Virus record (IMG/VR): IMGVR_UViG_3300022173_000189
Location: 6,829 to 70,828 of that record
Source of the DNA: a virus
Taxonomy: Duplodnaviria > Caudoviricetes
DNA length: 64,000 nt
Direction: 5' to 3' (one strand)
Part shown: positions 11,511-48,979 of the stretch, one piece after another
How positions within the stretch are numbered: the first letter of the stretch is position 1
Layout: the number at the start of each line of letters is the position of its first letter
The notes under the pieces: generated by a model
The model's database searches: none
What the model saw: the letters and a program-made list of their open reading frames with translations, nothing else
Told to the model about the DNA's origin: nothing
Program-made: the position numbers and the translations under genes

Positions 11511-13229
11511 ATGACCACTGATGACCAAGAACCCGTCCAGCAGAAGAAGCTCACGGGCGAACAGCTCGACGTAATCAAGAATCCGGTCAAGCCCGGCCAG
11601 GTGACCAAGATTACGGCCTATGCAGGCACGGGCAAGACCAGCACGCTTTCCGCCTACAGCGAGTTCCACCACCAGGACTCCGCCCTTTACCTGGCCTTCA
11701 ACAAGAGCGTGGCAGAGGAGGCGCGCAACCGCTTCCAGCTCCATGTGACGCCCAGCACGATCCACGGCCTGGCCTACCGCTCGGTCAACGCCCGGAAGTT
11801 TGGCCCCATCGCCTCGCGTCTGCGCTACGGCCTCGTGATGAAGCTATTTGGTCTCAACACGCTTTACAGCGGTGCCGCGCTCATCGCCACGTTGGACAAC
11901 TTCCTAAACAGCGCCGCCGACAAGACCCTGCCGCTGCACATCGTCGATCCGAGAAAGACCTTCAAGCCGGATCAACTGGTGGCGATGTCGGACAAACTTT
12001 GGGAGAAGATGCGCGATGGCAAGGACCAGGTGCCAATGACCCATTCAGGCTACCTGAAGCTCTATCAGCTCTCCAAGCCTTACATCCCGCAGAAGCTCAT
12101 CATGCTGGACGAAGCGCAGGACACCAACCCTGTGACCTTCGACATCGTGATGCGCCAGGTAAACGAGCACAAGGCCAAGCTCATCATGGTCGGCGACCGT
12201 CGTCAGGCCATCTACGGCTGGCGTGGAGCCATCAACGCGATGGACATGGAGACCCAGCAGACCTTCCACCTGACCCAGAGCTTCCGCTTCGGCCCGCAGG
12301 TCGCCCAGCTTGCCAACGGCATCCTGGCCCGTGTGTTCAAGGAGACCGTCATGCTCAAGGGCTACCAGGAGCGTGACACCCGCATCGTCTCGGTCGCACC
12401 GACCAAACACACCTGCGTGTGCCGCACGAATTACGTCCTGGTCACGGACGCCATCGGCCAGGCGATGCTGGGCCGCAAGGTCTGCATCGTGGGTGACTTC
12501 GAGCCGTTCCTGCGCGACCTGCTGGACACCTTCAAACTGTGGGCCGGGCACTACAACGACATCCAGTCCCCGTACATCCGGGCCTTCGGTTCGTTCCACC
12601 GGCTGAAGGATTTCGCGGAGAGTGGATTCGACCAGGAGCTGGCCGCGAAGGTCCAACTGGTCGAGCACTTCCAGGTGAACACGCCGACCGCCATTGAGGT
12701 GCTTCGTCGGAACATGGTGAGTGAGGACGCGGCGGATGTGCTCTACACCACGGTCCACAAGGCTAAGGGCCGGGAGTGGGCCAACGTGCGGCTAATGGAC
12801 GACTTCGTGAAGGACGTGCCCTACCTGAAGCCAGGCGAGGTGATGACGAGAGAAGAGGAGGAGGAGTTCCATGCGCTTTACGTCGCCGTCACCAGGCCGC
12901 TGGATACTGTGGTGCCGACCTCGCTGCTCTACCTGCTGCGGGAATACGTCATGCTCAGAGCACCTGCCGGGTCTGACGCGCAGCACGCCGCTCCGCCCGA
13001 AAGCGTCGCAGCTCCTCTGTTTGAACCGGAAATGGTAGATCAGGAAATGGGTCCACCGTCAGTCGAGACCCCACCACCTCCGCCAGCGCCGACTCCGCAA
13101 CGTGGCAAGAAGGCTTCCGGTTTTCCGCCGAATCTTCTGGAGAATCTTGAGAAGCAGGTGGCTTATCTCCAAAAGGAAAGCGAAGAGTTATCCCGTCGCG
13201 GGAGGAAAATACCAGCTCACGAGGAGTGA
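11511..13229 (+). CDS. UvrD/Rep-family (SF1) DNA helicase
   Basis: AYAGTGKT, LDEAQD, VGDRRQAIYGWRGA, LTQSFRFG, TVHKAKGREW, YVAVTR. Confidence 0.95.
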   Translation: MTTDDQEPVQQKKLTGEQLDVIKNPVKPGQVTKITAYAGTGKTSTLSAYSEFHHQDSALYLAFNKSVAEEARNRFQLHVTPSTIHGLAYRSVNARKFGPIASRLRYGLVMKLFGLNTLYSGAALIATLDNFLNSAADKTLPLHIVDPRKTFKPDQLVAMSDKLWEKMRDGKDQVPMTHSGYLKLYQLSKPYIPQKLIMLDEAQDTNPVTFDIVMRQVNEHKAKLIMVGDRRQAIYGWRGAINAMDMETQQTFHLTQSFRFGPQVAQLANGILARVFKETVMLKGYQERDTRIVSVAPTKHTCVCRTNYVLVTDAIGQAMLGRKVCIVGDFEPFLRDLLDTFKLWAGHYNDIQSPYIRAFGSFHRLKDFAESGFDQELAAKVQLVEHFQVNTPTAIEVLRRNMVSEDAADVLYTTVHKAKGREWANVRLMDDFVKDVPYLKPGEVMTREEEEEFHALYVAVTRPLDTVVPTSLLYLLREYVMLRAPAGSDAQHAAPPESVAAPLFEPEMVDQEMGPPSVETPPPPPAPTPQRGKKASGFPPNLLENLEKQVAYLQKESEELSRRGRKIPAHEE

Positions 13230-13707
13230 AGGTGTCTGAGGGTCCGCCCTCTCCAAAGAGCGTGGTGCCCACCAGCTCGTTCGCACGGCCCTTCTGCACG
13301 TAGGCCAGCGTCGCGTGTGGCTTGTAGGATGGCCAGGTGTCTCCGTGGGGCTGGGAGGCCGCGATGCGTAGATTGAGACGGCGCAGGCCAGGGCTGTACA
13401 CCGGCATGATCACCACGTCGTAATCCGGCTTGTCGTCGAAGAGCCGGATGCGGCCCAGGCGCACGGCAAAGGGCTTGGTCGTCTCGATGATGCGTTTGAA
13501 GCTCTCGGACGCCCCATCAGCAATCAGTCCAAACTTGCAGGTGACGTGAGGCTCATCTTCCCGACCGTCGTCAGCGAGCGCGTCCTCCGGGATGTTCAAC
13601 TCCGACCAGCGCAGCATCGCGTCAGCCTGTTCAGGCGGGATGTCGATCTGGGTCGAGCTGAAGCGATGGGCTTCGCAGATGAGGGAGACAAAGGAACGGG
13701 TCTTCAC
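12955..13707 (-). CDS. 2H phosphoesterase (T4 gp57B/Acb1-like)
   Basis: Two HxT motifs (EPHVTCKFG, YKPHATLAYV); GTG start overlaps stop of upstream gene. Confidence 0.8.
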   Translation of the reverse strand: MKTRSFVSLICEAHRFSSTQIDIPPEQADAMLRWSELNIPEDALADDGREDEPHVTCKFGLIADGASESFKRIIETTKPFAVRLGRIRLFDDKPDYDVVIMPVYSPGLRRLNLRIAASQPHGDTWPSYKPHATLAYVQKGRANELVGTTLFGEGGPSDTFTPRELVFSSRDGITLRFPFGDKPPASQDSPEDSAENRKPSCHVAESALAEVVGSRLTVDPFPDLPFPVQTEELRRFRAERRAARQTRQVL

Positions 13708-14006
13708 GCGGTCGTGCCGAGTTCGCCACCCTGTCCATCCTGGAGCGTGACGTTGTGGTAACCGTCCTCGGACCAGATGCTCAGCATGTGTGGCTGGCCA
13801 CCCATCCACTGCTTGATGCTCTGCCAGATGTCACCCTGCACCGGGATCTGCTGAACCAACCGGCCACGGGAGATGTGGGCGGCGGTGCCGCGCTCCTTGT
13901 CCACGCGGACGTAATCACCTTCCTTGTCCTGCTGCCACAAAGACTGGAGCCGCTGGGCGTCGTAGCTTTCTTCGAGGAGATTGGAAACAACCGAGGCCGC
14001 GTTCAC
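13704..14006 (-). CDS. Hypothetical protein, paralogue of 14003-14359
   Basis: Shared LW..DK.G.YV and IWS..(G)NVTL.DGQG.(D/E)LG; N-terminal VVSNLLE. Confidence 0.8.
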   Translation of the reverse strand: MNAASVVSNLLEESYDAQRLQSLWQQDKEGDYVRVDKERGTAAHISRGRLVQQIPVQGDIWQSIKQWMGGQPHMLSIWSEDGYHNVTLQDGQGGELGTTA

Positions 14007-14359
14007 ACCACACCTCCAAGGTCATTGCCCTGGCCGTCGTGCAACGTGACGTTGCCGTGGTCGTTCACCGACCAAATGTTCGGGAAGAAGCCCTTGGCTT
14101 CCATCCAGGCGTTGATGCCGGGGTAGGGATTCTCAGGCTCAACCGGGATGGTCTCCATCGCACTGCCGTGGGCCACGTACACCACCGAGCCATCGTCATT
14201 GATCTGAACGTACTCGCCGTCCTTGTCCTCGTTCCAGAGATCCGCAACAGACGGCTCCTGGTCACCCCCTTCATCCTGGTCTTGAGGCACGCCAGGATCG
14301 GTGCCCCATCCTTCGTTTTCGAGGAGGCGGTTTACAATGGCTTCGGCAGGTTTGCTCAT
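14003..14359 (-). CDS. Hypothetical protein, paralogue of 13704-14006
   Basis: WMEAKGFFPNIWSVNDHGNVTL; N-terminal AIVNRLLE; TAGTTA 4 nt before ATG. Confidence 0.8.
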   Translation of the reverse strand: MSKPAEAIVNRLLENEGWGTDPGVPQDQDEGGDQEPSVADLWNEDKDGEYVQINDDGSVVYVAHGSAMETIPVEPENPYPGINAWMEAKGFFPNIWSVNDHGNVTLHDGQGNDLGGVV

Positions 14360-14362
14360 AGA

Positions 14363-15517
14363 CTAACTATAGTGGTCGGGCAGGTCGGCTTTGAAGGACT
14401 GTTCCCGTGACGCTTCAAACTGCTGGCGGACCTTCTCCAAGGTCGGCGGTGGAAGCTCCCTGACCTTCCTCATGCGCTCCACCAGCCAGTCAGGTGCCTC
14501 AATGACCTGGGACCGCTCCAGGAGGCTGCTGGCGATGACGTGGGCGCTTTCCCTCACAGGATTGGTCCTGAGCTTCAGCTTGAGCTGTGCAGGGTCTTTG
14601 ACGTGGCTCTGAGCCTGGGTGAGTCGTGAGGGGTCCATATCGTCGAGAGCAGGTTTCAAATCTTCCATGTCAGGGACGATCTTGGTCTCTGAGCTGTTTT
14701 CAGCTCCAGTGTAATCGTCGTTCACGGCCCAGCCGTTCACCTTCTCCAGAAGAGAGTCGGCCAGGTCAAACAACCCAATGTTCTTGGTGATGGCTGCCAT
14801 CGCTCCAGGAGAGTTCCCAAACCGTGCCTCCAGCTCATCTGCAAAGGTGTCGGCAAAGCCTCCGTTCCAGACCTCCTTCTTGGCCTTCCGGTAATCCTTG
14901 GCCATCTTGCCGTCACCAGTGAGTTTTTCGATGGTGACATTCTTGGCCAGCCTATCGACGTTGATGTGGTAGGTGCCACCATCCTGCTCTTCCCACTCTC
15001 CGTTGTCATTGTCCCGAAGAAGCTCATCCAGGTCATCGTTTGGAGCATAGGCTGCGGCGAAGCCGTTGAGTCCATACCCTCCAAACTTGGTCATCAGAGC
15101 CTTCCTGAAGTCCTGACGGTAATTCTCGTCCCAGTCTTTCCACTGAGCGTCATTCTCCATCGTGCTGTGACCTTCTTCATCCAACAACGGGTAGTCCTCC
15201 ACGCTGTCGATGTATTCGATCAGGGACTCGATCTGCTCTGGACTGAGCGTGGCCAGCTTTGCTGGTGTGATCCCAACCCAGGAGCTGCCGTGGCCTCCAG
15301 ACCGCTCTTCAACGTGTTCAGGAAATGTCTCCAGCCAGAACTTCGAGTTGGATCTCTCCACCATGCTGCCTGAGTAGTCACTGTAACTGGACGCAGGCAG
15401 TATCCACATCTCCAGACGTTCGTCCCAGTCCAGCTTGCTGGTCAGAGACTCCTCTTCAGCCTGAGACAACGTAGTCCCCAGGATCTCACCCTTGATGCTG
15501 TCGTCGTCTTCGATCAT
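14363..15517 (-). CDS. Acidic hypothetical phage protein
   Basis: 384-aa ORF; SDYSGSMVERSN and EDYPLLDEE segments. Confidence 0.8.
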   Translation of the reverse strand: MIEDDDSIKGEILGTTLSQAEEESLTSKLDWDERLEMWILPASSYSDYSGSMVERSNSKFWLETFPEHVEERSGGHGSSWVGITPAKLATLSPEQIESLIEYIDSVEDYPLLDEEGHSTMENDAQWKDWDENYRQDFRKALMTKFGGYGLNGFAAAYAPNDDLDELLRDNDNGEWEEQDGGTYHINVDRLAKNVTIEKLTGDGKMAKDYRKAKKEVWNGGFADTFADELEARFGNSPGAMAAITKNIGLFDLADSLLEKVNGWAVNDDYTGAENSSETKIVPDMEDLKPALDDMDPSRLTQAQSHVKDPAQLKLKLRTNPVRESAHVIASSLLERSQVIEAPDWLVERMRKVRELPPPTLEKVRQQFEASREQSFKADLPDHYS

Positions 15518-15518
15518 G

Positions 15519-15857
15519 TCACCAACTAGCTACTCCCAGTTGAACGGCTGCTGAGTCCATGTTCGGGTCTGGGTAGATTGGCTTGTTCACGGTTCCATAG
15601 AAGGACACAAAGCATCTTCGTATCGCAAGGACATCTTCTGCGTCACAGGGCTGCCAACTGGAAGTCCAGGTTCCAACGTCCAAGACGAACCTGGGTCTGG
15701 CATACGTTCCAGAGACGATGGTGTGAACTCTGTCCAGGTCATCCACTCCGTCTCCTGAGTAGATCACCGAGTCCTGCACCCTGATGTCCACATTCAGATC
15801 GAATGCCCATGAGGCTCTCAGAGCAACGTAAGCCTGCTGGTCACTGGTCAGTAGCAT
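15519..15857 (-). CDS. Hypothetical protein
   Basis: 112 aa; TAGTTA 6 nt before ATG. Confidence 0.55.
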   Translation of the reverse strand: MLLTSDQQAYVALRASWAFDLNVDIRVQDSVIYSGDGVDDLDRVHTIVSGTYARPRFVLDVGTWTSSWQPCDAEDVLAIRRCFVSFYGTVNKPIYPDPNMDSAAVQLGVASW

Positions 15858-15866
15858 TCACTCTAA

Positions 15867-17147: not shown

Positions 17148-17180
17148 AACGAAGAGGAAGAACGTGTAGTTCTTAGAGGC

Positions 17181-17483
17181 ATGAATGCACTGCACTTACT
17201 GTCAGTCCTCCACGAAGAGTTCCCGCTGTCCACGATGGGGCCGGACTTCAAGGGGACGCACACACTGGCCCTCCAGGAAGACGGGCTGTACGCCAACATC
17301 TGGTGGAACGGAACCTCCTGGTATGCTCGAATCTCAGGCGAAGCTTTGATGGCGGAGCCGAGGCCGCTGGTCGCCAACTTGAAGGTCAGGCTGGCCGCGC
17401 TTCACGCGGCAGGCCCGCCGCCACCAGCCGCCACTGCTGCACCCTCTTCACCCTCTGACCCATCCGGCTTGAGCGGGTCGTAG
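17181..17483 (+). CDS. Hypothetical protein
   Basis: 100 aa; GTTCTTA 5 nt before ATG. Confidence 0.65.
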   Translation: MNALHLLSVLHEEFPLSTMGPDFKGTHTLALQEDGLYANIWWNGTSWYARISGEALMAEPRPLVANLKVRLAALHAAGPPPPAATAAPSSPSDPSGLSGS

Positions 17484-18130
17484 TCGGAGAGGTAGAGCTT
17501 GAAGTCGATGCTCTTGCAGGTGAAGGATGCGCCATCGCCCTGACTGCTGAAGCCGCTGTAGGAAATCTCCGGCGAGTTGAAGCCTTTCTTCTCCAGCCGT
17601 GCCTTCCAGTCTTCGATGATGAACTCAGAGAAGTAGTTGTCGCCTGCGGACACATGGCGATACCAGTCACGCGCCCGCTCCTTGCTCCGGCCTTCCAACT
17701 CGTCGATCTGGTGACCACCGTCGTCGTCTCGCTTGCCGTCCTCATCGAAGGCGTATTCGTTGGCGCGGATGGTGTCGTCAACCTGTTCATCGGCGTTTTG
17801 GTAGTCGTACTCTGCCTCCAGCTCGCGGTAGATGGCGTTGTTGTACTCGATGACATCTTCGGACAGGTCCGCCGCCAGTGCGTCGCAGTCCTTCTCCACC
17901 GTCTCTTGCCAATACTCGTTCTGTTCTGCGCTCTCGAAGTTCAGGTCGATCTGATCGATGGCCGCATTGGTGGACCGCTGATGGACGTAGTGGTGGTTCC
18001 TGGTGACGGTGCCGGTGAGTTCAACACGCCCGCTTAGGATGAACCGCTTCAGGTCGTTAATGTCCGCGCCAAGGATCTCCGACTTGAAGTCTTCCTCATC
18101 ACTTTCAATCAGTCTGCGCGCTTTGCTCAT
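17402..18130 (-). CDS. Acidic protein with SGFxSQGDGAxF motif (apparently circularly permuted)
   Basis: IYRELEAEYDY..VDDTIRANEYAFDEDG precedes DELEGRSKERARDWYR..SGFSSQGDGASF. Confidence 0.8.
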   Translation of the reverse strand: MSKARRLIESDEEDFKSEILGADINDLKRFILSGRVELTGTVTRNHHYVHQRSTNAAIDQIDLNFESAEQNEYWQETVEKDCDALAADLSEDVIEYNNAIYRELEAEYDYQNADEQVDDTIRANEYAFDEDGKRDDDGGHQIDELEGRSKERARDWYRHVSAGDNYFSEFIIEDWKARLEKKGFNSPEISYSGFSSQGDGASFTCKSIDFKLYLSDYDPLKPDGSEGEEGAAVAAGGGGPAA

Positions 18131-18133
18131 GGC

Positions 18134-18391
18134 TTAACTAGCCAGTTGCTTGCGGAGCTTCCTGAAGATTTTGGGATAGGCGCTCTGATCGGGGAGGTCT
18201 TCGCGCCGTTCGAGGATGACCTTGGTCATAGGCCAGCGGTAGGTCTGGGCCATCGGGAGGTTCTTCTTGCGGAACTCATCTGACTCCTTCTGGGCGTCGG
18301 CCACGAGCTTGGCGTGGGCTTTCGCCGCCGCTTCGTCCACTGGTGGATTCAGCAGTTCGTCTATGCTATCGAGTTCGTCAGCAGAGAGCAT
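18134..18391 (-). CDS. Hypothetical protein
   Basis: 85-aa ORF. Confidence 0.6.
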   Translation of the reverse strand: MLSADELDSIDELLNPPVDEAAAKAHAKLVADAQKESDEFRKKNLPMAQTYRWPMTKVILERREDLPDQSAYPKIFRKLRKQLAS

Positions 18392-18432: not shown

Positions 18433-20151
18433 TTACTTCGGTGGATGGATGATTGGCCGCACGAACTCATAGCCGTCAATGTCATGGAGCTTCCTGAACA
18501 TCGCGTTGCTGTTTCGTCGCATCGTGGGATGCTGGGAGTCAATGAAAAAGGTCACCTCGACCTCATTCGGGGGCACCGGCTTGGGCCGCACGAAGCGTCC
18601 AATCATCTGGTTGGCCACCTCGTAGTCCGCCACGTAGTCCGCGACCACTCCCGCCCGAATCTCATTGATGCTCACGCCCTCCTTGATGAGCGAGCTGATG
18701 AGCACCGGCCCGCCAGGCGCGGTCTTGAACCAGTCAATGGTTTCGTCCCGGTCGGCGGTCGCACCGTAGAGGCACTGGATGTTGTCCTCGGCCATGCCCG
18801 ACTCAATCAACATTGTCTCCAGGATCTCGATGTGGATGTTGCGCGTGCAGATGACCAGCGTTGGCAGCTTGCGATTCGAGTACCAGTTGGTCCACTCGAC
18901 GATGAGTTCGTTGCGCTCCTGGAACCGGACCACGGCCTGGTCGTAGAGCCGGTGGAGCAGGCAGTCCCGCGACTCCACCTTGTATTCCTTGCCGTCGATC
19001 TCGATGCGGTGAAGGCCCATCTCGGTCGCATTCTCCTTGGTGGAGACGACCTCGCCTGCCTCGGCGTCGAACGTGCGCCGGGTCTCCTGGATGATGCGGC
19101 CACGGGAATTCTTTTGGAAGATGGGGCCGAGGTAGATGCCCTTGGACCACTTGTCGCCGATCATGGCCCAGGCTGTGGAGTTTGGCGCGACCACATGGGG
19201 CACACCGTCGAACCTGTTCTTCCACGACTCGCGCTCGATCAAGTAGATGGTCGGGGTGGCCACGCGGCCCATGTCCACCATCGTGCGGAACTTCACTGTC
19301 TTGAGCTGCGGCCCCAGGAGGCCGATGATGGTGTAGTAGGCCGAAGGGTTGTTCTCCTTCAAACTGTCCGAGCAGCCCAGGCGGAAGTAGGCCGGGATGG
19401 CGCGCAGGATGTCCTGGCTGCTGGGCGAGCTGGCGTGATGGCTCTCGTCAAAGAGGATTCCACCAAACGTGTTGAACCACTCATCCTCCTTCAGCTCCTT
19501 GAAGTTGGTGCGGATCATCGAGAGCGTGGCCACCACCATGTCCGTTCCCGTGCAGTCCTTCTTGCCACCGCCGTACTGGGTGATGTCCCACGAAGGCAGG
19601 AACCGCTTCATCTCCTTGGCCGACTGCTTCACCAGCCGCTCGGTGTGTGTCACGTAGAGGAAGCGGCAGGACGGGTCGCCCTTCTTGATCATCGCAGCGG
19701 CTCCAGCCAGGAGCGCGGTCTTGCCGCCTGACACCGTGACCTTGTGAATGCCAATGCCCGCGTGCAACCAGGCCAGAATGCAGCCGCGCTGGTGGTCGTC
19801 CAGGGTGAGGTCGTTCAGCAGGTCCACCGGGATGTCTTCGAGGGTGGCCTCCTTGAAGTGCCGGGGCAGGAGCTTCTGCGTGTCGAACTCGATGTCGTTG
19901 AGGCGGCACATCTGCATCACCTCGTCGCGCCGTCCACGGTCCACGATGGCGCGGTGCGAGCCGATGACCTTCAGCGGTCTGGCCCAGCCATCCCAGCCGC
20001 TCTCGCCCTTGGTGTGCTCCCACTCCTTGAACGACGGGACGAAGAAGTAGCCGTTGGGCCGGTACTTGAACTTCTGCTCCAGCTTGCTCAGCTCGCTGGG
20101 ATAGTCCGAGATGAGCAGGAGCCGTGTGGCGTCTTCAATGAGGCTGATCAC
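18433..20151 (-). CDS. uvsW: UvsW-like SF2 DNA helicase
   Basis: FKYRPNGYFFVPSF..GWDG (UvsW N-terminus), VSGGKT, FDESHH, LIKEGVSI, QMIGRFVR; GTG start overlaps upstream stop. Confidence 0.88.
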   Translation of the reverse strand: MISLIEDATRLLLISDYPSELSKLEQKFKYRPNGYFFVPSFKEWEHTKGESGWDGWARPLKVIGSHRAIVDRGRRDEVMQMCRLNDIEFDTQKLLPRHFKEATLEDIPVDLLNDLTLDDHQRGCILAWLHAGIGIHKVTVSGGKTALLAGAAAMIKKGDPSCRFLYVTHTERLVKQSAKEMKRFLPSWDITQYGGGKKDCTGTDMVVATLSMIRTNFKELKEDEWFNTFGGILFDESHHASSPSSQDILRAIPAYFRLGCSDSLKENNPSAYYTIIGLLGPQLKTVKFRTMVDMGRVATPTIYLIERESWKNRFDGVPHVVAPNSTAWAMIGDKWSKGIYLGPIFQKNSRGRIIQETRRTFDAEAGEVVSTKENATEMGLHRIEIDGKEYKVESRDCLLHRLYDQAVVRFQERNELIVEWTNWYSNRKLPTLVICTRNIHIEILETMLIESGMAEDNIQCLYGATADRDETIDWFKTAPGGPVLISSLIKEGVSINEIRAGVVADYVADYEVANQMIGRFVRPKPVPPNEVEVTFFIDSQHPTMRRNSNAMFRKLHDIDGYEFVRPIIHPPK

Positions 20152-21605: not shown

Positions 21606-21641
21606 AGCCCTAAGAACAAAGCACTCGCGTAGTTATCTCGA

Positions 21642-23771: not shown

Positions 23772-25067
23772 TTAAGTTGATTGTGCGCCGTTGAAGTTGA
23801 TGACGGCGCGCTGAGGAGTTCCACCCAGTCCCTTGATGACCCACTTGTCACTGCCGTTGGGCGTGCAGGTGAATCCATTGGTCTGGCTGGCCACGACCGG
23901 CTGGGTGCCGTTGGCTGCCACCGTGACGAAGATGCTCGAAGTGTCGTAGTCCACCCGTGCGCCGCTGGCGATCTTGGGCAGCGTGACGGTGCCGGAGCCG
24001 ACGAAGTTGAGGCGCATCGAACCGAAGAGCCAGGCCATCGTGCCCGTCTGGGAAGCGACCAGGATCTCGTTGAGGCTCGGCTTGTGCGTGCCGCTGGGCG
24101 CAATGGTCGTGGCATAGCCGTCAATGGAGGCCGTCTGCCAGTCACTGCCAGTGGCAATGGTGCCGGTGACGAGGTTGACCACGAAGTTGGCCGGAGTGCC
24201 AGGCGTCCCAGGAACGCCCTGCGTGCCCACGGCGGTGCCAGCAGACCCCTGTGCAACGATGTCCCAGTAGGGAGTGGTCGGCGGAGCGTTGGTGAAGTCA
24301 GCGGTGTGGCCGACCAGCACGATGGCGGACGACGTGACCGAGCCATTGCCCAGGACCGCGCTGGTGTAGCTGGCGACCTCCTTGGGAATATAGCTGCGAC
24401 CGAAAGTCCAGGTGCCCGTCCAGACCATGCCTGGAGAGCCTGCGCCGCCCGTGCCGGGCGTTCCCTGCAAACCGAGGCCACCTGTCATGCCTGGGTCGCC
24501 CCGGTCGCCCTTGACGATGGAACCGACCAGGAGCGTGCCTTCCGCGCCCAAGGGCCGGATGGTGAGCAGCACGCTGGCGGTTACGGTGAGCGTGCTGTCA
24601 CCACGGTTGCGGATGGCGATGATGAACTCACCAGCCTGCTGGAAGCTCACCCCACCGGAGATTTCACCGGAGGTCGAGGCCACCGAGACGCCCGTGGTCC
24701 CGCCGAAGCCTTCGGCGTAGTACACGTTGAGTTCAATGGCCGAGGACTTGGGCGTGGAGCCGATGGCCGCGTTCAACACGCGAGCCTCGAAGCCTGCCGG
24801 GATGCGAAAGTTGGCGACGATCTCCTCCACGCCAGGACCAACCACGGTGGGCTGGACCGGCAGGGGCACGATCTGCTCCTGGTTGTTGACCACCTCGATC
24901 AGCTCGTTGGTCTTGGCCGCGAGCAGATTGTCGCGCTCGGCCAGGTAGCGGGTGGGGTTGGCGAGGCCGGGCACGTTCTGCGCGTCGCCTTCGGAGAAGT
25001 GGCGTACGTCGCCCTGTCCGTAAGCCACGCCCGCTGCGTTTGGAATGTCGATGGGCTTGATTGCCAT
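23772..25067 (-). CDS. Tail fibre protein with collagen-like segment
   Basis: ANPTRYLAERDNLL fibre N-terminus; GDRGDPGMTGGLGLQGTPG; WTGTWTFGRSY..YWDIVAQG module. Confidence 0.8.
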   Translation of the reverse strand: MAIKPIDIPNAAGVAYGQGDVRHFSEGDAQNVPGLANPTRYLAERDNLLAAKTNELIEVVNNQEQIVPLPVQPTVVGPGVEEIVANFRIPAGFEARVLNAAIGSTPKSSAIELNVYYAEGFGGTTGVSVASTSGEISGGVSFQQAGEFIIAIRNRGDSTLTVTASVLLTIRPLGAEGTLLVGSIVKGDRGDPGMTGGLGLQGTPGTGGAGSPGMVWTGTWTFGRSYIPKEVASYTSAVLGNGSVTSSAIVLVGHTADFTNAPPTTPYWDIVAQGSAGTAVGTQGVPGTPGTPANFVVNLVTGTIATGSDWQTASIDGYATTIAPSGTHKPSLNEILVASQTGTMAWLFGSMRLNFVGSGTVTLPKIASGARVDYDTSSIFVTVAANGTQPVVASQTNGFTCTPNGSDKWVIKGLGGTPQRAVINFNGAQST

Positions 25068-25074
25068 AAGCTAA

Positions 25075-25458
25075 CTATGACGGGATGTCTTCTTGTTGGT
25101 CGAACCAGTGAAGCGACCGTGACTCGATGAACTTTTTGTACACCTTAAACTTGAAGTCCAGTCGGCTGTCCAGGTTGTAGATGCGGGTCGTTTTCTTGAC
25201 CTTCGACCCCTTGCCTTTGACGAAGCCCATGCGGATTTCCCGTGGTGGACGGCGCACAGGGACGATGACTCCGACGTGTCCCACCTTGATCTTTGCACCA
25301 GTGATGATGGCGTCTTCAAAGACCCGGACCATCACGTCGTAGAACTTGTCCGCCTGGGCGAATGGCACCCCAAGCTCCCGCTGAAACCGGGTGATGAAGT
25401 CTGGCTTGTTGATCGATTCGAGTTTTGGCACGGCGTCACCCGCGTCATGCGGATGCAA
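25075..25458 (-). CDS. HU/IHF-like DNA-binding protein
   Basis: ADKFYDVMVRVFEDAIITGAKIKVGHVGVIVPVRRPPR..FKFKV. Confidence 0.75.
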   Translation of the reverse strand: MHPHDAGDAVPKLESINKPDFITRFQRELGVPFAQADKFYDVMVRVFEDAIITGAKIKVGHVGVIVPVRRPPREIRMGFVKGKGSKVKKTTRIYNLDSRLDFKFKVYKKFIESRSLHWFDQQEDIPS

Positions 25459-26182
25459 AGCTAAGAACCGACTCGAAAGTCCTGCGGCTCAACTTTGATA
25501 CGAGAACCATCGAGACGATGACGGAGCGGTCCTCACCACGGATGATGCTGAGTCCCTGCACATCCACACGCGGCTCCCAGCGGCTGAGCGCCGCCGACAG
25601 CTCCTCTTCGATGATGCTCTCGATGGAGGCCGAGCTGTTCTCGAAGATCAGCTTGCGGATGTTGGTGCCGTACTCCGGTTCCATGAGGCGCTCGCCCTTG
25701 GCCGTGGTCAACAGCATCTTCACGCTGGACTCCAGGATGCGGATGTCCTCGCCGCTGTCGAAGGACCAGGTGGCCGCGTTGGGCGTTCCAGTGTCACGCG
25801 GCAGGATGGGGCCGTAGATGAGCGGCACCGTCTTGGCAGGCACCGGCACCGTGTCACGCACCGTCACCTGAAAGCGGGTCTGCGTCGTCTCCGGCTGCGG
25901 CCCGCGAAAGTTCTCGCCGTTGAGCGTGATGTAGTAACTGCCAGGCCGCAGCACGCGCTCACTGCTCACCGCCAGGGTGCCGCTGCCGGTGAACTCTTCC
26001 GGCACAGTGCCATCGTCCCAGTCCAGCGTGGCCTTCACGTTGGCCAGCGGCAGGTCCGCGTCGTCCTCGATCAGCCGTGCGCTCACGCCGACGACCGCGC
26101 CGACTCCGGTGGACGTGAGGATGCGCGGCCTTGGCACGGTGACCGCGATGTCCTGACCGTCAGAATCAAGCAGGAGGAGCAT
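25445..26182 (-). CDS. gp25-like baseplate wedge protein with N-terminal PKD-like domain
   Basis: SVKMLLTTAKGERLMEPEYGTNI..LIFE..ALSRWEPRV; N-terminal LDWDDG..PGSYYITL. Confidence 0.9.
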   Translation of the reverse strand: MLLLLDSDGQDIAVTVPRPRILTSTGVGAVVGVSARLIEDDADLPLANVKATLDWDDGTVPEEFTGSGTLAVSSERVLRPGSYYITLNGENFRGPQPETTQTRFQVTVRDTVPVPAKTVPLIYGPILPRDTGTPNAATWSFDSGEDIRILESSVKMLLTTAKGERLMEPEYGTNIRKLIFENSSASIESIIEEELSAALSRWEPRVDVQGLSIIRGEDRSVIVSMVLVSKLSRRTFESVLSFASA

Positions 26183-28152
26183 TAGCGTTTGGGGAACCAG
26201 CGACGATACACGGCTGGAGAAGGTTTGGGCGCGTTGCCGTTGGAAGCTGGCGCGGCTGGAGCGGGAGTCTCGGCGGCAGGTGCCGAAGTCTCGTTATCGT
26301 CGAAACCCTTGCGCGATTCGCCGAGGAAGGTGACGAGCGTGCGGCGCTTTTTACCAGGCTTCTCCTCGGTGAGCGTGCCGGGCTTGAGCAACGGGTTTTT
26401 GCCGAAGCTGGAGACCACCACGTCGTTGTCCTTGAGCTTCGGAACATCCGCCACGTCCTCGTTCGTCCATTTGCGCGTGATGCGTTTGATGCGCGCTGGG
26501 TCTTCCGACTGGATGACCTCGTTGAGCTGGTTCACCAGCTTCTGGCCTTCCGCAGTGCCACTGAGTTTGCTCCTGACCTCTTCCATCAGCTTGGCCTGGG
26601 ACGGCGCGGGCTTGCGGTTCTTGCGGCTCTCCTCCATGCCTGGACTCTCTTCCGGCAGCGCGGTCATAAAGACGTTCACGACCTCATCGGGAAGGTGCAT
26701 GTAGCGTTTGAAGACGGTCTCAACCCAGGCTTCCTTCGGGAGCTGGTACTTCTCCATCACGTCGGCCAGGATGTCGAGGACTTCGGCCTGGCTCTTGAGC
26801 ATCTCCATCTTCATCTGGTCTTCGAGCGACCCGATGGGTGGCATCATCGCCTTGATGTCGAGCTGCTTCAGGTCGTGCTTGCCCTTGAGCAGTGCGTGGA
26901 AGTAGCCCAGCCATTGATAGCCCGCCACGATGGGCTTGCGGATGGATTTGATCTTCCGCAGGAACCGGATGTCCTGGGCGAGCAGCGCCTTGCCGGAAGG
27001 CGAGTCCTGGCCGTCCTTCTTGCTGCCCAGCCAGGAGCGCGGCATACCAATGATGGAGAAGAAGAGGTCGGTCAGCAGCTCGATGTCGTAAACGTCAGGC
27101 ACCTGGGTTGTACCGGCGATCTTGTTGATCGCATGGGTGAAGCCCTTGGGCTGCGCCAGGTAGAGCACCGTGTCCAGCGCCAGCGCGTTGTAGAAGCTAT
27201 TGAACTCGGTCGGCGTGTTGAGCGCGTCCTGCGCGCCCTGGTTGCCGAAGGAGAGCTTGGCGCGGAGCTGCTGCTTCCAGCGTTGCACCGTCTTCATCTG
27301 CTCGATGGGCGGCTGCTCCTGCACGTCGATGTTGATCGCGTAACGGTCAGGCTGGACCTGGGCACGGTGAACGACCATCTGGTCCACGGCCATCTTGAGC
27401 TTCTTGTATATGCCCTCGGCCTCGGCGAAGACCGGCTCGCCGTGCTCGCTGATGCGCAGGCGGTACATGCGGCGGAAGTGGAGGAAGTCCCAAGGATACC
27501 AGAGGTCTTCCACGTCGCGGCCCGTGTTGATGCCAACGCGCTGCACGGGCGTCTTGTTGTCCGGCATGACGAAGGCGTCGTCTTTGTTCGGACGGTGACC
27601 GGCCCAGCGGAAGCCGATGCACTTGCGATTGCGTTCCAACCAGTAGCGGCGGATGTCCATCGGATAGACGAAGGACAGGCCCATGACGCCCTCCTCCGGG
27701 GCATACTCGATCTTCTCGAAATGGTTGCCGAGCGAGGCGGTGTACCAGACCTGCGACTGGATGATGTCCTCCGCGCCGACCTTCACGAGCATCTCGTTCA
27801 GCTCTTCCTCGAAGTGCTTGTCGTTGCACTGATACCAGACGGTGCCGGGAACGCTGGCGTCCGCCTGGGTCGCCTCGTCCACGATCTCGACGAGCGCCGC
27901 CGCCATCAGATCCCACATGGACATCTCGTCCCACAACTGCATCATCTGCGCGAACGTCGTGGGACGCCGCATGACCGTGTTGTAGCGCGTCCACAGATCC
28001 GCATCAGCGACTGCGCCTGCGTCCTGGAACTCCCTGAAGAGCTGCTCGTCAGACTGGGGTGTCGCCGAGCGAGGCACCAGCGAGCCGGTGCGGAGGCCGG
28101 AGCTGCCCACCAAGCCCATGTGTTTAAGGATGCCAGTAGAATCGACGTTCAC
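26182..28152 (-). CDS. Portal protein (T4 gp20-like)
   Basis: ALVEIVDEA, FLHFRR..HGEPVF, LKMAVDQMVVHRAQVQPDRYAINIDV, IIGMPRSWL. Confidence 0.88.
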   Translation of the reverse strand: MNVDSTGILKHMGLVGSSGLRTGSLVPRSATPQSDEQLFREFQDAGAVADADLWTRYNTVMRRPTTFAQMMQLWDEMSMWDLMAAALVEIVDEATQADASVPGTVWYQCNDKHFEEELNEMLVKVGAEDIIQSQVWYTASLGNHFEKIEYAPEEGVMGLSFVYPMDIRRYWLERNRKCIGFRWAGHRPNKDDAFVMPDNKTPVQRVGINTGRDVEDLWYPWDFLHFRRMYRLRISEHGEPVFAEAEGIYKKLKMAVDQMVVHRAQVQPDRYAINIDVQEQPPIEQMKTVQRWKQQLRAKLSFGNQGAQDALNTPTEFNSFYNALALDTVLYLAQPKGFTHAINKIAGTTQVPDVYDIELLTDLFFSIIGMPRSWLGSKKDGQDSPSGKALLAQDIRFLRKIKSIRKPIVAGYQWLGYFHALLKGKHDLKQLDIKAMMPPIGSLEDQMKMEMLKSQAEVLDILADVMEKYQLPKEAWVETVFKRYMHLPDEVVNVFMTALPEESPGMEESRKNRKPAPSQAKLMEEVRSKLSGTAEGQKLVNQLNEVIQSEDPARIKRITRKWTNEDVADVPKLKDNDVVVSSFGKNPLLKPGTLTEEKPGKKRRTLVTFLGESRKGFDDNETSAPAAETPAPAAPASNGNAPKPSPAVYRRWFPKR

Positions 28153-28215
28153 AGTTTTAACTATCGTTGGTTTACCTGGTGATAAGAACGGCAGATGCTT
28201 CTGGTTCTTTAGGGC

Positions 28216-28760: not shown

Positions 28761-29120
28761 CTAACCCGCATACTCGTAGTCCTTGCCGGGGAAGTCATCC
28801 TCACAGACCTCCAGTTCAACGCCTGTGCGCGCCGCGCCATCCTTGATGTAGCGGTAGAACGTCGGAGCACGCGGCGCGGCAATGAGACGCACGAGCTGAG
28901 TGACAACCTCCTTGGGAAGCTTCTGGAAATCGAGCTGGACCTTCCACGTCTTGGGCTTGGTGGTGTCCTTCACCGTCTGCGTGTCGGCCAGGAAGTTCAT
29001 CAAGGACGGCGTGGAGAAGAGCCGCATGAGCAGGCGGTTCACGAACACGGAAATCTTGCGAGGCAGTTGGGCCTCACCTTCCTGCTCGATCAGAATTCTG
29101 GCGAGTTGGCTCTTCGTCAT
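28761..29120 (-). CDS. Hypothetical protein with N-terminal LARILIE motif
   Basis: 119 aa; TAGTTA 5 nt before ATG. Confidence 0.75.
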   Translation of the reverse strand: MTKSQLARILIEQEGEAQLPRKISVFVNRLLMRLFSTPSLMNFLADTQTVKDTTKPKTWKVQLDFQKLPKEVVTQLVRLIAAPRAPTFYRYIKDGAARTGVELEVCEDDFPGKDYEYAG

Positions 29121-29124: not shown

Positions 29125-29280
29125 TTAACTACGCTGCCGCATGTAGTCCCGCAGTGCCGTGCTGACGAAGCTCCGCAGCCAGCGGATGTTCAGGCGTGGG
29201 CGCACAGGCATCCATGCAGGGGTCTCAACATCGACCTTGCAAATCTCAGTCCCGTTCGCGTTCAGTGAATACGCAGTCAT
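29125..29280 (-). CDS. Small hypothetical protein (51 aa, not in ORF track)
   Basis: MTAYSLNANGTEICKVDVETP..; AAGTTA 6 nt before ATG. Confidence 0.4.
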   Translation of the reverse strand: MTAYSLNANGTEICKVDVETPAWMPVRPRLNIRWLRSFVSTALRDYMRQRS

Positions 29281-37471: not shown

Positions 37472-37481
37472 TAGTTAAGGC

Positions 37482-38045
37482 GTGAAGCTCAACCTCGTCG
37501 TGCTGTTGTTGGCCGCGACGGTCTGGGCTGGATGTCAACTGCCGCCAGCTAGTCCAGCCCGTCTGTCTCCGCCTGTTGTCTCTCCTGCGGTTGCACCTGT
37601 CGCGCCGACTCCCATTGTCGCGGCAGCGGCTGCTCCTGCCCCGGTGGCTCGCCGGGCGCGCACTGCGGCAGTCCTTCCGCCTGCTCCTGGCATTCGTGCC
37701 GCTGCGGCTCCAGAGGCGGTGTTCTCTGCCGCAGGCGGTCCTCTCTTCCCGACTGTGACCAACCGCTGGCACGCACTGACCAACCGCTACCCACGTCTTG
37801 GCACCAACAGTCCCACACTCTTTACCAAGCATCCGATTCAGATGCTCAGCGACGGCACCAACTGCGTCGTGGTCTGGTGGACCTCCTACACCAACTGGAC
37901 AGCCCAGTATTCCACGGACCTGATGACCTGGGCCACCATATCCAAAGGCACGACCCTGCTCACCAATGCCCCGGTCGTGGTCGTTGAATACGGATCTGGC
38001 CGCATCTTCGACAAGAAATTTTATCGCCTCATCCCCACCCCATGA
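37482..38045 (+). CDS. Putative lipoprotein with P/A-rich linker and C-terminal ..YSTDLxxW..FYRL domain
   Basis: Signal peptide with lipobox-like VWAGC; WTAQYSTDLMTW..KFYRL. Confidence 0.75.
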   Translation: MKLNLVVLLLAATVWAGCQLPPASPARLSPPVVSPAVAPVAPTPIVAAAAAPAPVARRARTAAVLPPAPGIRAAAAPEAVFSAAGGPLFPTVTNRWHALTNRYPRLGTNSPTLFTKHPIQMLSDGTNCVVVWWTSYTNWTAQYSTDLMTWATISKGTTLLTNAPVVVVEYGSGRIFDKKFYRLIPTP

Positions 38046-38413
38046 AAGCCGACGCCATTGTTAAAAGACTGGTCGAAGAAACGAACAACTACCGCACGCT
38101 GGTCGCCGTGGACGTGTACGGCCTGGACGAAGGCTGGCACGCAGAGGGCAAGGTCACGATCAACTGGTCGCTCGAAATGGATGCCCGTGCCTGGGGCATC
38201 AAGGAGATGACGCCCGTAATCCTCTCCATCGAAGGCAGCGCGGAGATGACGCTCATGGCTGACACCGAAGACCAGACCAGAGAGCTGCCGCTCACCTGGC
38301 GCGCAGGCGATCCTGCCTTCACGGTCGATACTGATTTCAAAGGTGGCACGAGCATCCTCCCGAAGACTGTGGAAGTGGACCTGAAGCGTAAGCGCATGAT
38401 TGTCCAGTTCTAG
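38042..38413 (+). CDS. Hypothetical protein with N-terminal AIVKRLVE motif
   Basis: 123 aa, ATGA-coupled. Confidence 0.75.
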   Translation: MKADAIVKRLVEETNNYRTLVAVDVYGLDEGWHAEGKVTINWSLEMDARAWGIKEMTPVILSIEGSAEMTLMADTEDQTRELPLTWRAGDPAFTVDTDFKGGTSILPKTVEVDLKRKRMIVQF

Positions 38414-42058: not shown

Positions 42059-42062
42059 TTTT

Positions 42063-42150
42063 GCGGTGGGCCTCACCGGAGAGTAGGCCAGAGAAACCGC
42101 TGCGCGGGTAGGCCAGGAGAGAAAACCTGTTCGCCCGCGCATTTTCTTTT
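42063..42150 (+). terminator. Tandem hairpins ending in U-rich tract (attenuator/terminator-like)
   Basis: GCGGT/ACCGC and GGCCT/AGGCC stems; TGCGCGGG/CCCGCGCA stem followed by TTTTCTTTT. Confidence 0.5.
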
Positions 42151-42315: not shown

Positions 42316-42317
42316 CC

Positions 42318-43154
42318 ATGAATACTGACCACTGTTTCCGCATTGGCTCCACGCACGCCGTCTGCCAGGACTACGCCATCTCCGGCATCATTAGGTTGAA
42401 GACTGTCCCCGGAGCCACGGAAGACATCGGTTACGCCATCGTCAGCGACGGCTGTTCCGGTGCCGCGTTTACGGACATCGGGTCCAGGTGCCTGACGCAC
42501 GCCGCCCGTCACATGCTGATGGTGGCTCCGAGCGCGGTCTTCAACCTTGATGCTGAAACCATCGGTCGCGTGATCATCGACAAGGCTGCCAGTGCTGTGG
42601 ACCGGCTTGGGCTGACTCGTGGCTGCCTGCAAGCCACGCTGCTGATGGCGGTGGTGCGAGGCTCGAAAGCCCGCGTGCTGATGTTCGGTGACGGTGGCAT
42701 TGTCAGGCAAACTCATGGCTGCCGAGAAGTTCAATGCGTCAGCTACGATGCGTCCAAGCCAGGGGTCCAAGCCAATGCGCCTTACTACCTGGCCCACCGC
42801 CTGTCGGTGCAGGACACCACGGACTACTTCTCAGAGTTTTCGCAGTTCAGGCGGACCACCATCATCGACTCATCCGGTAGCCGGACACAGGACGAGGATG
42901 CAGGCGCAGTGACGGACCTGAAGTTCGACGTGGTGGAGGGCGACCAGATTGTCCTGCTCTCGGACGGCATCGATCAGTTTTACGACGGCAAGTTTGAGAA
43001 CATCCACTGGTCGATTGAGGCCGATGCGTTGACGAAGTTCAAGAGCACGCACGGAGAGTTCGTGACCCGGCGCGTGCAGGCCCACGAGCGCGTCTGCCGC
43101 GAGAACCAGGTTTCCCACCACGACGACCTCAGTGTCGCCGCCATCATCGTATGA
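42318..43154 (+). CDS. PP2C-family protein phosphatase
   Basis: CQDY, VSDGCSG, LLSDGI, HDDLS. Confidence 0.9.
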   Translation: MNTDHCFRIGSTHAVCQDYAISGIIRLKTVPGATEDIGYAIVSDGCSGAAFTDIGSRCLTHAARHMLMVAPSAVFNLDAETIGRVIIDKAASAVDRLGLTRGCLQATLLMAVVRGSKARVLMFGDGGIVRQTHGCREVQCVSYDASKPGVQANAPYYLAHRLSVQDTTDYFSEFSQFRRTTIIDSSGSRTQDEDAGAVTDLKFDVVEGDQIVLLSDGIDQFYDGKFENIHWSIEADALTKFKSTHGEFVTRRVQAHERVCRENQVSHHDDLSVAAIIV

Positions 43155-44845: not shown

Positions 44846-44863
44846 CCCGGTTCTTACGTGCTG

Positions 44864-46573: not shown

Positions 46574-46576
46574 CCT

Positions 46577-46906
46577 ATGCCCTCGAAAAAGAAACGTAAG
46601 AAGCAGAAGGCTCCGGTCTTCGCGAAATGTGATGAAGCGGGTTCGGACGGCGAGATGACCGCGCTGGACTTGATCGAGGAGCAGAACCCGGAGGCGCTGA
46701 AGGCGGAGGGATTCGACGACTGCATTCTCGGCGTGGCCTATCGCTGCGGCAAGCTGGCCATCCTGGCCTACGACCGGCGCAAGTGCGTCGAGAAGCTGAT
46801 GAAGGACGGCATGGACCATGACGAGGCGGAGGAGTTCATGGGCGTGAACGTCGAAGGAAGCTGGCTCGGCGAAGGCACTCCAATTTTTATCGAAGTTGTT
46901 CCCTGA
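46577..46906 (+). CDS. Conserved phage hypothetical protein
   Basis: GFDDCILG..YD..M..DEAEEF..N..G..GEGTPIF. Confidence 0.75.
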   Translation: MPSKKKRKKQKAPVFAKCDEAGSDGEMTALDLIEEQNPEALKAEGFDDCILGVAYRCGKLAILAYDRRKCVEKLMKDGMDHDEAEEFMGVNVEGSWLGEGTPIFIEVVP

Positions 46907-46924
46907 TACCGTTCTTTTAACAAT

Positions 46925-47965
46925 ATGGCTCAACCTACTGCTCCGACGACAACGCTGACCGTGGGATATTTCAACGGTCACAAGTTTCCGATCCACCTCT
47001 CCATCTCCAACCTGAACATCACGCTTCGGCTGAACCCAGGCGAGTTCATCGTGGACCGCGAACAACGCAAGATTAACGACCCCTACTTGGACCGCTACGC
47101 CGGGAAGAACCAGCTCTCCAAGGAGACGACCAAAACGCCGGTACCGCTGCTGCTCATGCCGACGTTCACGAATGCGCGCCCGGCGACCGGCGAAAGCTCC
47201 GTGCGTGAGGTCACCGAATTTGTGCAGGACGGGAAGTTTGTGCGGAGACCCGTGCTCCCCGCGCCTGCCAACATTTCTATTCCGCAGGAGAACGCGTCGT
47301 CGTACCGCGCCATGTCGATGGACGAGGCACGCAGGCTCGGCTTGATTCACAAGACCCGCGAGGTGCCAGAGAACTTCGGCGCTGAGGAGACTGTGAACGG
47401 GCCGAAGGGTGCCATCCCGGAAATCAAGTATGCCACGGACATGGGACCGAGCAGCCGCACCAAGGCACTGCCAGCCGCCGTCGTCCAGCCGCCGTTGAAG
47501 GCTACCGTCCCGGTGAAGAAGGCGCTTCCGGCTCCGAAGCCTGTAGTGCAGGCTCCTGCTCCGGTCGTGGTCGAGTCCGCGCCCGCTCCGGCTCCGAAGG
47601 CCCGTGCAGTGGCAGCTCGTCCGTCTGTCCGCCGTGTCGCTGCCGCCGTCACGCCTGCCCCGGAAAGCGCGTTCGGAAACACTGTGGTGTCCAACGTGCC
47701 GCCGCCCGTGTCCGAGAACGATGAGCCGGTCCTGGATGATGTCGAGGAGGCCCAGGAGGACTCGGAAGCCGCAGAGGAAGCTGTCGCCCAGTCTGACGAG
47801 CAGCCCGAAGGCGAATCTGACGAGCAGGCGACTGGAGCCGAGGTGCCGACCTTTGCCTGTCTCAAGGACGGCAGGGTCTTCGGCAGCCGGGCCGAGCTGG
47901 CAGCCCACATCCAGGCCAATTACCCGCGTCAGATGAAAGCTTTGATGAGCGGGTACCCGGAATGA
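46925..47965 (+). CDS. Hypothetical protein with P/A- and E-rich linker and degenerate C2H2-like C-terminus
   Basis: 346 aa; CLKDGRVFGSRAELAAHI. Confidence 0.75.
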   Translation: MAQPTAPTTTLTVGYFNGHKFPIHLSISNLNITLRLNPGEFIVDREQRKINDPYLDRYAGKNQLSKETTKTPVPLLLMPTFTNARPATGESSVREVTEFVQDGKFVRRPVLPAPANISIPQENASSYRAMSMDEARRLGLIHKTREVPENFGAEETVNGPKGAIPEIKYATDMGPSSRTKALPAAVVQPPLKATVPVKKALPAPKPVVQAPAPVVVESAPAPAPKARAVAARPSVRRVAAAVTPAPESAFGNTVVSNVPPPVSENDEPVLDDVEEAQEDSEAAEEAVAQSDEQPEGESDEQATGAEVPTFACLKDGRVFGSRAELAAHIQANYPRQMKALMSGYPE

Positions 47966-47975
47966 TAGTTAGGGC

Positions 47976-48761
47976 GTGGCAGATACATCCGCAGTAACAG
48001 GCCCGACCAGCAACGCCAGCCAACCCGTCAGGACTTCATCGGGTTCGCCTGACACGCTGCCCTTGCAGGGCTATACCATCGATCAGCTCGCGGACTACGT
48101 GGAGCGCCAGCTTGGCAAGCCCACCTGGATCGTCGAGCTGACCCGGCAGCAGGTGCTGGACTGCTGCCAGGACGCATTGAATCTCGCCTCCGTCTGGATG
48201 CCGCTCCGGCGCTACCAGTCGCTGGTGCTCGCCAAGGGGAAGTTCCGTTACATCGAAGGCGTGGACGTTGGCCAGGGAGTGGCTGACGTGACCTTCGTCG
48301 AGCCTAACCCGGTGCCGACCGAAATCTTCTACGGCAACCTCATCGAACCGGCTCCGCTCTTCCGCCTGGGCCTGGACGAATACGACACCTTCCTGCGCTG
48401 GCGCAAAACCTGGATGCGCGTCACCTCGGTACGGCCGGACTGGCTCTACGACGAGTACGAACAGTGCCTCTACATCCACAACCCCATTGAGCGGTATCAC
48501 GCAGGCGTGATGACGTTCAACAGCTACACCGACACGAAGCAGTTGCGCGGTGCGGTGGCGCTCTGGGTGAAACGCTATGCCGAGGCCAAGGGCAACAAGA
48601 AGCTCGGCGATGTCTGGATGAAATACAGCGGGGCCATCCCAGGACCGGCCCAGAACCTCCAGCTCGACGCCGCCCGGCGCGACCAGGCTCAGACGGAGAT
48701 GACCAAGCTCGAAGAAGAGCTGAAGGGAATGCAGCAGGGCGCTGGCATCTCCATCGACTGA
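47976..48761 (+). CDS. Neck/head-completion protein (T4 gp13-like)
   Basis: DYVERQLGKP..VELT..QVLDCCQDAL; WVKRYA..KYSGAIPG. Confidence 0.82.
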   Translation: MADTSAVTGPTSNASQPVRTSSGSPDTLPLQGYTIDQLADYVERQLGKPTWIVELTRQQVLDCCQDALNLASVWMPLRRYQSLVLAKGKFRYIEGVDVGQGVADVTFVEPNPVPTEIFYGNLIEPAPLFRLGLDEYDTFLRWRKTWMRVTSVRPDWLYDEYEQCLYIHNPIERYHAGVMTFNSYTDTKQLRGAVALWVKRYAEAKGNKKLGDVWMKYSGAIPGPAQNLQLDAARRDQAQTEMTKLEEELKGMQQGAGISID

Positions 48762-48763
48762 TC

Positions 48764-48979
48764 ATGCACCCGGCTAAAATCGTCAGCCTGCTCCTGGAGG
48801 ACGACAAGTCCGAGCTGCTGGCCAGCCCAGATCCCGACCACACTCCCTGCCTCCAGAAGTGCGACATCTGCGGCACCAGTCCCTGCACGCTGGTCCACCG
48901 GCAGTCTGACCGCGTGGTCAGGCATTTGTGCCAGCCCTGCGACATCGAGCAGTTCAACGCTCTGCTCGACCGGCGCTGA
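48764..48979 (+). CDS. Small Zn-finger protein with N-terminal IVSLLLE motif
   Basis: CDIC..C..H..LCQPC. Confidence 0.7.
   Translation: MHPAKIVSLLLEDDKSELLASPDPDHTPCLQKCDICGTSPCTLVHRQSDRVVRHLCQPCDIEQFNALLDRR

Follow-up and report, generated by a model that had tools for sequence, protein, structure and literature searches.

A capsid-targeting sequence (CTS) carried by the bacteriophage T4 internal proteins IPI, IPII and IPIII and by Alt, and removed by the prohead protease gp21, was reportedly described by Mullaney and Black in 1996. Propeptides of 10-19 residues target the T4 internal proteins to the prohead core and are cleaved off by gp21, and among these otherwise diverse proteins the leader alone is conserved (PMC9026906, PMC3012670). 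Asp at the cleavage site stops processing, while targeting persists (PMC9026906). Here we analyze a 64,000-nucleotide stretch of DNA from an uncultured, T4-related giant phage (the window), bases 6829-70828 of the 70.8-kb IMG/VR virus record IMGVR_UViG_3300022173_000189 (G0), in which seven or eight mostly unrelated small proteins begin with a short peptide, here called a tag, that ends in [LI]-x-Glu. We put the probability at about 60% that these 9-14-residue N-terminal peptides are T4-type capsid-targeting propeptides on a larger cargo set. By analogy with the few T4 proteins so handled, the carriers are likely to be packaged in the capsid and to reach the host together with the DNA.

Like the T4 CTS, the tag is a short N-terminal peptide with an [L/I]-x-Glu end on otherwise unrelated proteins. 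The clade also encodes, as T4 does, an S77 protease with its catalytic motifs, and sites of the same type are present on its capsid protein, on the protease itself and on prohead-core open reading frames (ORFs). Tagged genes are partly clustered, as in the ip loci of T-even phages. In the T4 record itself, gp21, gp22 and gp24 carry [LI]-x-E within their first 10 residues, and ipII and ipIII share a 10-residue leader that is identical even in DNA. In contrast to that identity, the present tags differ among themselves. They also depart from T4 in their typical length (12 rather than 10 residues), in the size of the set (7-8 carriers in 64 kb, and more than 20 in a relative, G3), in a second conserved element that follows the Glu on some tags, and in a cargo that includes a 2H phosphoesterase; the present system is known from sequence alone.

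A second comparison is offered by phiKZ, 201phi2-1 and SPN3US, in which head and ejection proteins carry propeptides, often of more than 100 residues, that are cut by gp175/gp245-type proteases; the phiKZ and SPN3US enzymes cleave at [S/A/G]-x-Glu (PMC5694885). As proposed for the present tags, these giant phages package many proteins and cut them after Glu, and the diverged SPN3US paralogues gp53 and gp54, with their identical N-termini, find a counterpart in our data. Unlike these systems, the present tags are only 9-14 residues long and show no enrichment of [AG]xE, and they belong with a protease, capsid protein and portal that are T4-type in the strict sense.

Tag pattern, enrichment and modularity

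All nine N-termini that an initial annotation of this DNA had listed as carriers of a shared leader are found where it had placed them. Genes are named below by the position and strand of their start.

13672-13707, minus strand: 12-residue tag with GTG start, ending I-C-E, on the 2H-phosphoesterase gene 12955-13707
13971-14006, minus strand: 12-residue tag with GTG start, ending L-L-E, on gene 13704-14006 (100 residues), whose start overlaps the upstream stop by 4 nucleotides
14318-14359, minus strand: 14-residue tag ending L-L-E and followed by an acidic linker, on gene 14003-14359 (118 residues)
15476-15517, minus strand: weak case with an M-I-E start and only a second element, KGEILG, at residues 9-14, on gene 14363-15517
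17181-17216, plus strand: 12-residue tag ending L-H-E, on the probable gene 17181-17483 (100 residues)
18071-18130, minus strand: 9-residue tag ending L-I-E, with KSEILG at residues 15-20, on gene 17402-18130 (242 residues)
29085-29120, minus strand: 12-residue tag ending L-I-E, on the conserved 119-residue gene 28761-29120
38042-38077, plus strand: 12-residue tag ending L-V-E, on the ORFan gene 38042-38413 (123 residues)
48764-48823, plus strand: 12-residue tag ending L-L-E, with KSELLA at residues 15-20, on the Cys-rich gene 48764-48979 (71 residues)

Seven small ORFs share the pattern hydrophobic-x-x-hydrophobic-hydrophobic-Glu near the N-terminus, and in all eight tags P3 is L or I and P1 is Glu. 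The regular expression [ILVFM][ILVA]..[LIV][LIVCH]E matches the six-frame translation of the whole 70.8-kb record 33 times. Six of these matches lie exactly five codons past the start of a continuing ORF (13707−, 14006−, 17181+, 29120−, 38042+ and 48764+) and one lies seven codons past it (14359−). The fixed five-codon spacing in six ORFs identifies the unit as a fixed-length, 12-residue peptide ending in Glu. The amphipathicity of the tag helices is only moderate, between the 61st and 99th percentiles.

About 90 genes were called in G0 with a self-trained codon model that exploits its base composition (G+C about 60%; G+C at third codon positions, GC3, about 0.8 in real genes). Seven called genes carry the motif versus 0.19 in shuffled N-termini, a count reached in 0 of 5000 shuffles; the enrichment over shuffled N-termini that the initial annotation had proposed checking is thus present. 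Since the expression was built from the same cases, we also tested the T4 rule, which was set beforehand: [LI]xE ending at residues 8-16 is found in 18 of 85 G0 genes versus 6.8 expected from interior windows (P = 1e-4). VxE stands at background in G0, and only L and I are enriched at P3 before the Glu.

Relatives were fetched via the portal and tail sheath proteins, yielding G1 (160 kb, 51% G+C), G2 (37 kb) and G3 (203 kb, 89% complete); a search from the TerL locus recovered none. In the shuffle test the G0-derived expression gave 4 matches versus 0.39 in G1 and 6 versus 0.48 in G3, and, when one more residue was permitted ahead of the Glu and interior rates served as the reference, 9 versus 0.85 and 7 versus 1.0, respectively. 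The T4 rule gave 27 versus 13.9 in G1 and 34 versus 20.1 in G3. At the same residues, 8-16, [AG]xE is not enriched (8 versus 5.9 in G0, 9 versus 14.7 in G1 and 26 versus 22.7 in G3).

What follows the tag differs from carrier to carrier. When 43 candidate carriers drawn from the four genomes were trimmed of their first 25 residues and compared with one another, BLASTP gave no similarity at E<1e-3, with the exception of cross-genome orthologues and of one G0 pair: 14006− and 14359−, which the initial annotation had counted as unrelated carriers, are paralogues (36% identity over 73 residues). The tag of the G1 gene at 19250 is near-identical to that of 17181+, and similarity is absent past residue 25. 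Tag codons differ synonymously between genes, which rules out an RNA or DNA signal as well as recent recombination. Orthologues of 29120− from 12 relatives, about 40% identical, all keep M1, A7 and E12, and in them a variable linker of 0-42 residues separates the tag from the conserved domain. An AlphaFold (AF2) model of the 29120− product places the tag in a helix at residues 3-15 with a predicted local distance difference test score (pLDDT) of about 50, apart from a confidently modeled domain (pLDDT 85-90). Judged by these sequence comparisons, the tag is a modular feature under selection at the level of the peptide. The idea that the L-L-E codons serve a start further downstream as an internal Shine-Dalgarno sequence was rejected, because no start codon is near enough and the codons vary.

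Three further candidates were set aside: 59277+ because its N-terminus is part of a PhageMetallopep domain, and the loose-expression matches 1512+ and 52811− because the pattern is not retained in their orthologues. Another conserved N-terminus, which may or may not be a tag, accounts for the residue-6 peak in the position profile. A replication-type helicase of 570-600 residues (18433-20151, minus strand) and its orthologues at G1 37675, G2 13156 and G3 76265 all start with M-I-x-L-x-E, a conserved six-residue [LI]-x-E. In G1, a tandem array of 13 paralogues of about 170-225 residues (74813-81816; L019-L020) begins throughout with a D-P-A-E-F-V-x-S-[YF]-T stretch; unlike the tags, these common N-termini arise by plain paralogy.

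Head-maturation genes of the clade

The window encodes a Portal_T4 portal protein, a large terminase, a gp25-like baseplate protein and a gp5-like hub, along with UvsX-, Dda-, SbcD- and primase-like replication proteins, and the tail sheath gene lies just upstream in the same record. CheckV gives a completeness of 31% for the record, which at 70.8 kb corresponds to a phage genome of about 220 kb. The window DNA had zero matches among 50,697 phage records, and a protein search of the same set returned no portal closer than 26% identity. G0 is much nearer to G3, with which it has 48 of 90 proteins in common; their portals are 68% identical, and the two genomes are collinear over window positions 52989-63999. 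The two genes that anchor this comparison are as follows.

26182-28152, minus strand: T4-type portal gene (Portal_T4), headed by TAGTTA at 28158-28163
63463-63999, plus strand: last gene of the contig, cut off by its end; orthologue of G3 14928-15821

G3 has a Peptidase_S77 match (73.8 bits) and a Gp23 capsid protein. From residue 3 on, its protease is 34% identical to T4 gp21, and the His (LEHP) and Ser (SSRG) motifs are kept; S77 proteases with their catalytic motifs are also present in 12 other loci. The G3 enzyme starts M-Q-Q-L-L-E, aligned with the L-I-E at residues 7-9 of gp21, and the protease N-termini of 12 relatives have [LI][LI]E at the gp21-equivalent place. In the capsid proteins of 12 relatives, the residues that immediately precede the conserved mature core are invariantly [LM]-D-E, and they align on the L-R-E of T4 gp24. 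A comparison of the tags with capsid-protein cleavage sites, which the initial annotation had suggested, therefore finds the same type of site, in the relatives. Small ORFs just upstream of the protease in G3, L055, L057 and L063 start with 12-13-residue tags ending in L-L-G-E or I-K-E, and the counterpart position in T4 is held by the cleaved core proteins gp67 and gp68.

Peptidase_S77 and Gp23 matches are absent from G1. In G3, L055 and L057, the next genes after the orthologue of 63463-63999 are those of the module made up of tagged ORFs, gp21-type protease and capsid protein. Given the collinearity of G0 and G3 and the stop of the contig inside the gene that precedes the head module, the G0 protease very probably lies just beyond the end of the record, and its head genes should begin one gene further on. 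PDB sequence searches with a 431-residue protein (23772-25067) and with the first 320 residues of the G3 capsid protein gave nothing useful.

Carrier genes, the element behind the Glu and the start motif

In the 13707− product, Pfam 2_5_RNA_ligase2 covers residues 48-171. Orthologues in G2 and G3 and three database proteins retain a 12-14-residue tag ending in L-L-E; three distant 2H-phosphoesterase homologues (183-202 residues) are without it, their catalytic domain being preceded by only a few residues. At its 3' end the gene overlaps that of a Dda-like helicase (11511-13229, plus strand) convergently by 275 nucleotides (12955-13229). Coding signal is present in neither frame there, and one of the two stops may be displaced by an assembly error.

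The tag of 18130− belongs to a class that is abundant in G3, where at least 12 genes start with MSRAR and run to I-L-E, partly as adjacent runs; an Atlas search with this carrier produced leads only, all below 0.9. The 29120− gene and the portal gene are on one strand, the former about 0.6 kb upstream, and a fold search with the 29120− model gave zero matches at E<=0.001. A homologue search with 38042+ returned itself alone. The ATG of this gene overlaps the stop of 37482-38045 (plus strand), whose product has a lipoprotein-type signal at its start, with a hydrophobic run ending in A-G-C.

Two carriers had been listed as weaker cases. At 17181+ the tag is indeed present, and the gene itself is only probable (coding score +10; GC3 0.82 in the non-overlapped part). 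At 15517− we reject M-I-E as a tag; an in-frame TAG lies five codons upstream. The 384-residue product of this gene (14363-15517) contains two heptads, LADSLLE and IASSLLE, at 14536-14556 and 14764-14784 (minus strand), 76 residues apart, and a BLAST search for an internal repeat in the protein found none.

Behind the Glu, some proteins carry a further conserved element. The whole G0 proteome has only three copies of K[SG]E[IL]L[GA], each just behind the N-terminus (18130−, 15517− and 48764+). In G3 the element is E-[ST]-P-[RK]-x-h-h-[KR], with 21 copies versus 0-3 in G0, G1 and G2. Nine of the 21 copies are internal to proteins of 250-713 residues, each behind an h-h-E-like stretch (L043-L046; for example L043:14514-16625 and L044:9306-10061), and these proteins resemble chains of modules separated by tag-like joints. 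The internal copies may mark module chains that are cut apart, or may belong to a longer address.

The initial annotation had pointed to a TAGTTA motif near several carrier starts, which is confirmed: it stands directly before 14359−, 18130− and 29120−, and the remaining strong carriers are later genes of units that TAGTTA heads. Wherever it directly precedes a carrier, a carrier unit, the portal gene or the gene of the 431-residue protein, the distance to the start is 3-6 nucleotides. The copies in the window are:

14364-14369, minus strand: TAGTTA, 4 nucleotides ahead of the 14359− ATG
18135-18140, minus strand: TAGTTA ahead of 18130−
25072-25077, minus strand: TAGTTA ahead of the gene of the 431-residue protein, 25067−
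28158-28163, minus strand: TAGTTA heading the portal gene
29126-29131, minus strand: TAGTTA ahead of 29120−
21630-21635, plus strand: TAGTTA
37472-37477, plus strand: TAGTTA before 37482-38045, the first gene of the two-gene unit holding 38042+
47966-47971, plus strand: TAGTTA before the first gene of the two-gene unit in which 48764+ is second

In G1, 9 of 11 carriers are in TAGTTA-headed units versus 33 of 171 other genes (Fisher 3e-5), and in G3 the figures are 8 of 21 versus 41 of 237 (P = 0.04). A second motif, GTTCTT(T/A), stands 6-8 nucleotides before SbcD, TerL, a GT9 gene and others. Both motifs recur in G1 and G3, with the consensus GTAGTTAAGGC before the ATG, and their spacing suggests two promoter classes with very short leaders or none. 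The carriers thus have a start motif in common with the portal gene, with TAGTTA as a candidate late promoter only.

Weighing of the explanations and significance

By analogy with T4, we infer a sequence of core binding, cleavage, packaging and injection. The tag would fold into a short amphipathic helix and bind the prohead core as it assembles, and the attached protein would thereby become enclosed in the prohead. The gp21-type serine protease would then cut after the Glu of [L/I]-x-Glu and free the cargo inside the head, from which it would exit with the DNA at infection. Much of the T4-style reading advanced in the initial annotation has held up: the tag is modular and selected as a peptide, it ends in [LI]-x-Glu rather than in V-x-Glu or [AG]-x-Glu, the clade encodes a gp21-type protease, sites of the tag type occur on that protease, on the capsid protein and on the prohead-module ORFs, and the portal gene shares the start motif. 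On the other side stand the misjudged M-I-E start, the paralogy of 14006− and 14359−, and an own record that is without protease and capsid genes.

Several observations weigh against capsid targeting by a cleaved leader. Peptidase_S77 and Gp23 matches are absent from the 31% complete G0 record, and the presence of both rests on synteny with G3. Asp takes the place of the Glu at G1 134456, at G1 143316 and in the L002 orthologue of 29120− (putative start codon); each of these relatives has another [LI]xE nearby. In G3 the element [ST]P[RK]-x-h-h-[KR] stands behind the putative cut site, with further copies in protein interiors, and a simple clipped leader does not account for this. No sequence homology of the tags to the T4 leader was found; length, amphipathic pattern and site rule are what they have in common. 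Cargo functions are almost all unassigned, PHROGs and Pfam being almost uninformative on the carriers, and the same two databases gave almost nothing informative on ten large G1 proteins. Finally, with a best portal match below 26% identity, the clade has no cultured relative.

Some of these points would suit a tag that is never clipped and serves as a docking helix for a common partner, whether the prohead core or a hub such as DNA, a chaperone or a membrane complex, with the terminal Glu as part of the binding surface. A conserved region in G3 that continues for about 10 residues after the Glu and has internal copies would be expected of such a helix, as would Asp at the site in some relatives, given that in T4 the Asp form is still targeted (PMC9026906), and the only moderate amphipathicity fits as well. 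Docking would not explain why enrichment at P3 is specific to L and I and nil for V, why the same type of site marks the capsid propeptide boundary and the protease N-terminus in the relatives, or why E12 is invariant among 12 orthologues at about 40% identity, and we regard it as an unlikely, though serious, alternative. A common leader on unrelated proteins is also the mark of systems in which one enzyme modifies many substrates, and the tag could in principle be the recognition leader for a modifying enzyme of the radical-SAM type, as in ribosomally synthesized and post-translationally modified peptides (RiPPs). We consider this very improbable: Radical_SAM matches are absent from G0 and G1, the single radical-SAM gene of G3 belongs to a sugar-modification cluster and has no tagged gene within 8 kb, no candidate enzyme was found to co-occur with the dispersed tagged genes, and carriers are as long as 700 residues.

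It is likewise hardly credible, and was already disfavoured, that the peptide has no function and that the pattern reflects chance, duplicated 5' gene ends or a nucleotide-level signal of the start region. The start-proximal DNA motif common to several carriers and the 14006−/14359− pair are what one would expect in that case. The count never reached by shuffling, the enrichment repeated in two further genomes, the amino-acid pattern conserved despite synonymous codon variation, and the retention of the tag in orthologues at about 40% identity argue otherwise.

A more elaborate form of the T4-type propeptide reading can be put forward tentatively, as a possibility we would not bet on. The address might be bipartite, an amphipathic helix ending in [LI]-x-Glu followed by a short basic/hydrophobic element, and load dozens of unrelated proteins into the capsid, in some members of the clade as multi-module chains punctuated by the address. 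In this scheme the prohead protease would be a general-purpose enzyme for cargo release, and the capsid would hold a large, swappable set of ready-made enzymes; one of them, a 2H phosphoesterase, could break down cyclic-nucleotide defence signals as infection begins.

The advance over what is known from T4 lies in extent and not in principle. If the T4-type propeptide reading is true, the capsid-targeting device of T4 would be ancient and in wide use across the T4 superfamily, with cargo sets far exceeding those of T4 itself, and the tagged ORFans would be candidate counter-defence proteins for the first minute of infection. If the tags work as in T4, the N-terminal sequence alone would be a cheap predictor of the proteins that uncultured giant phages carry into their hosts, and the 12-residue tags could serve to load foreign proteins into such capsids.

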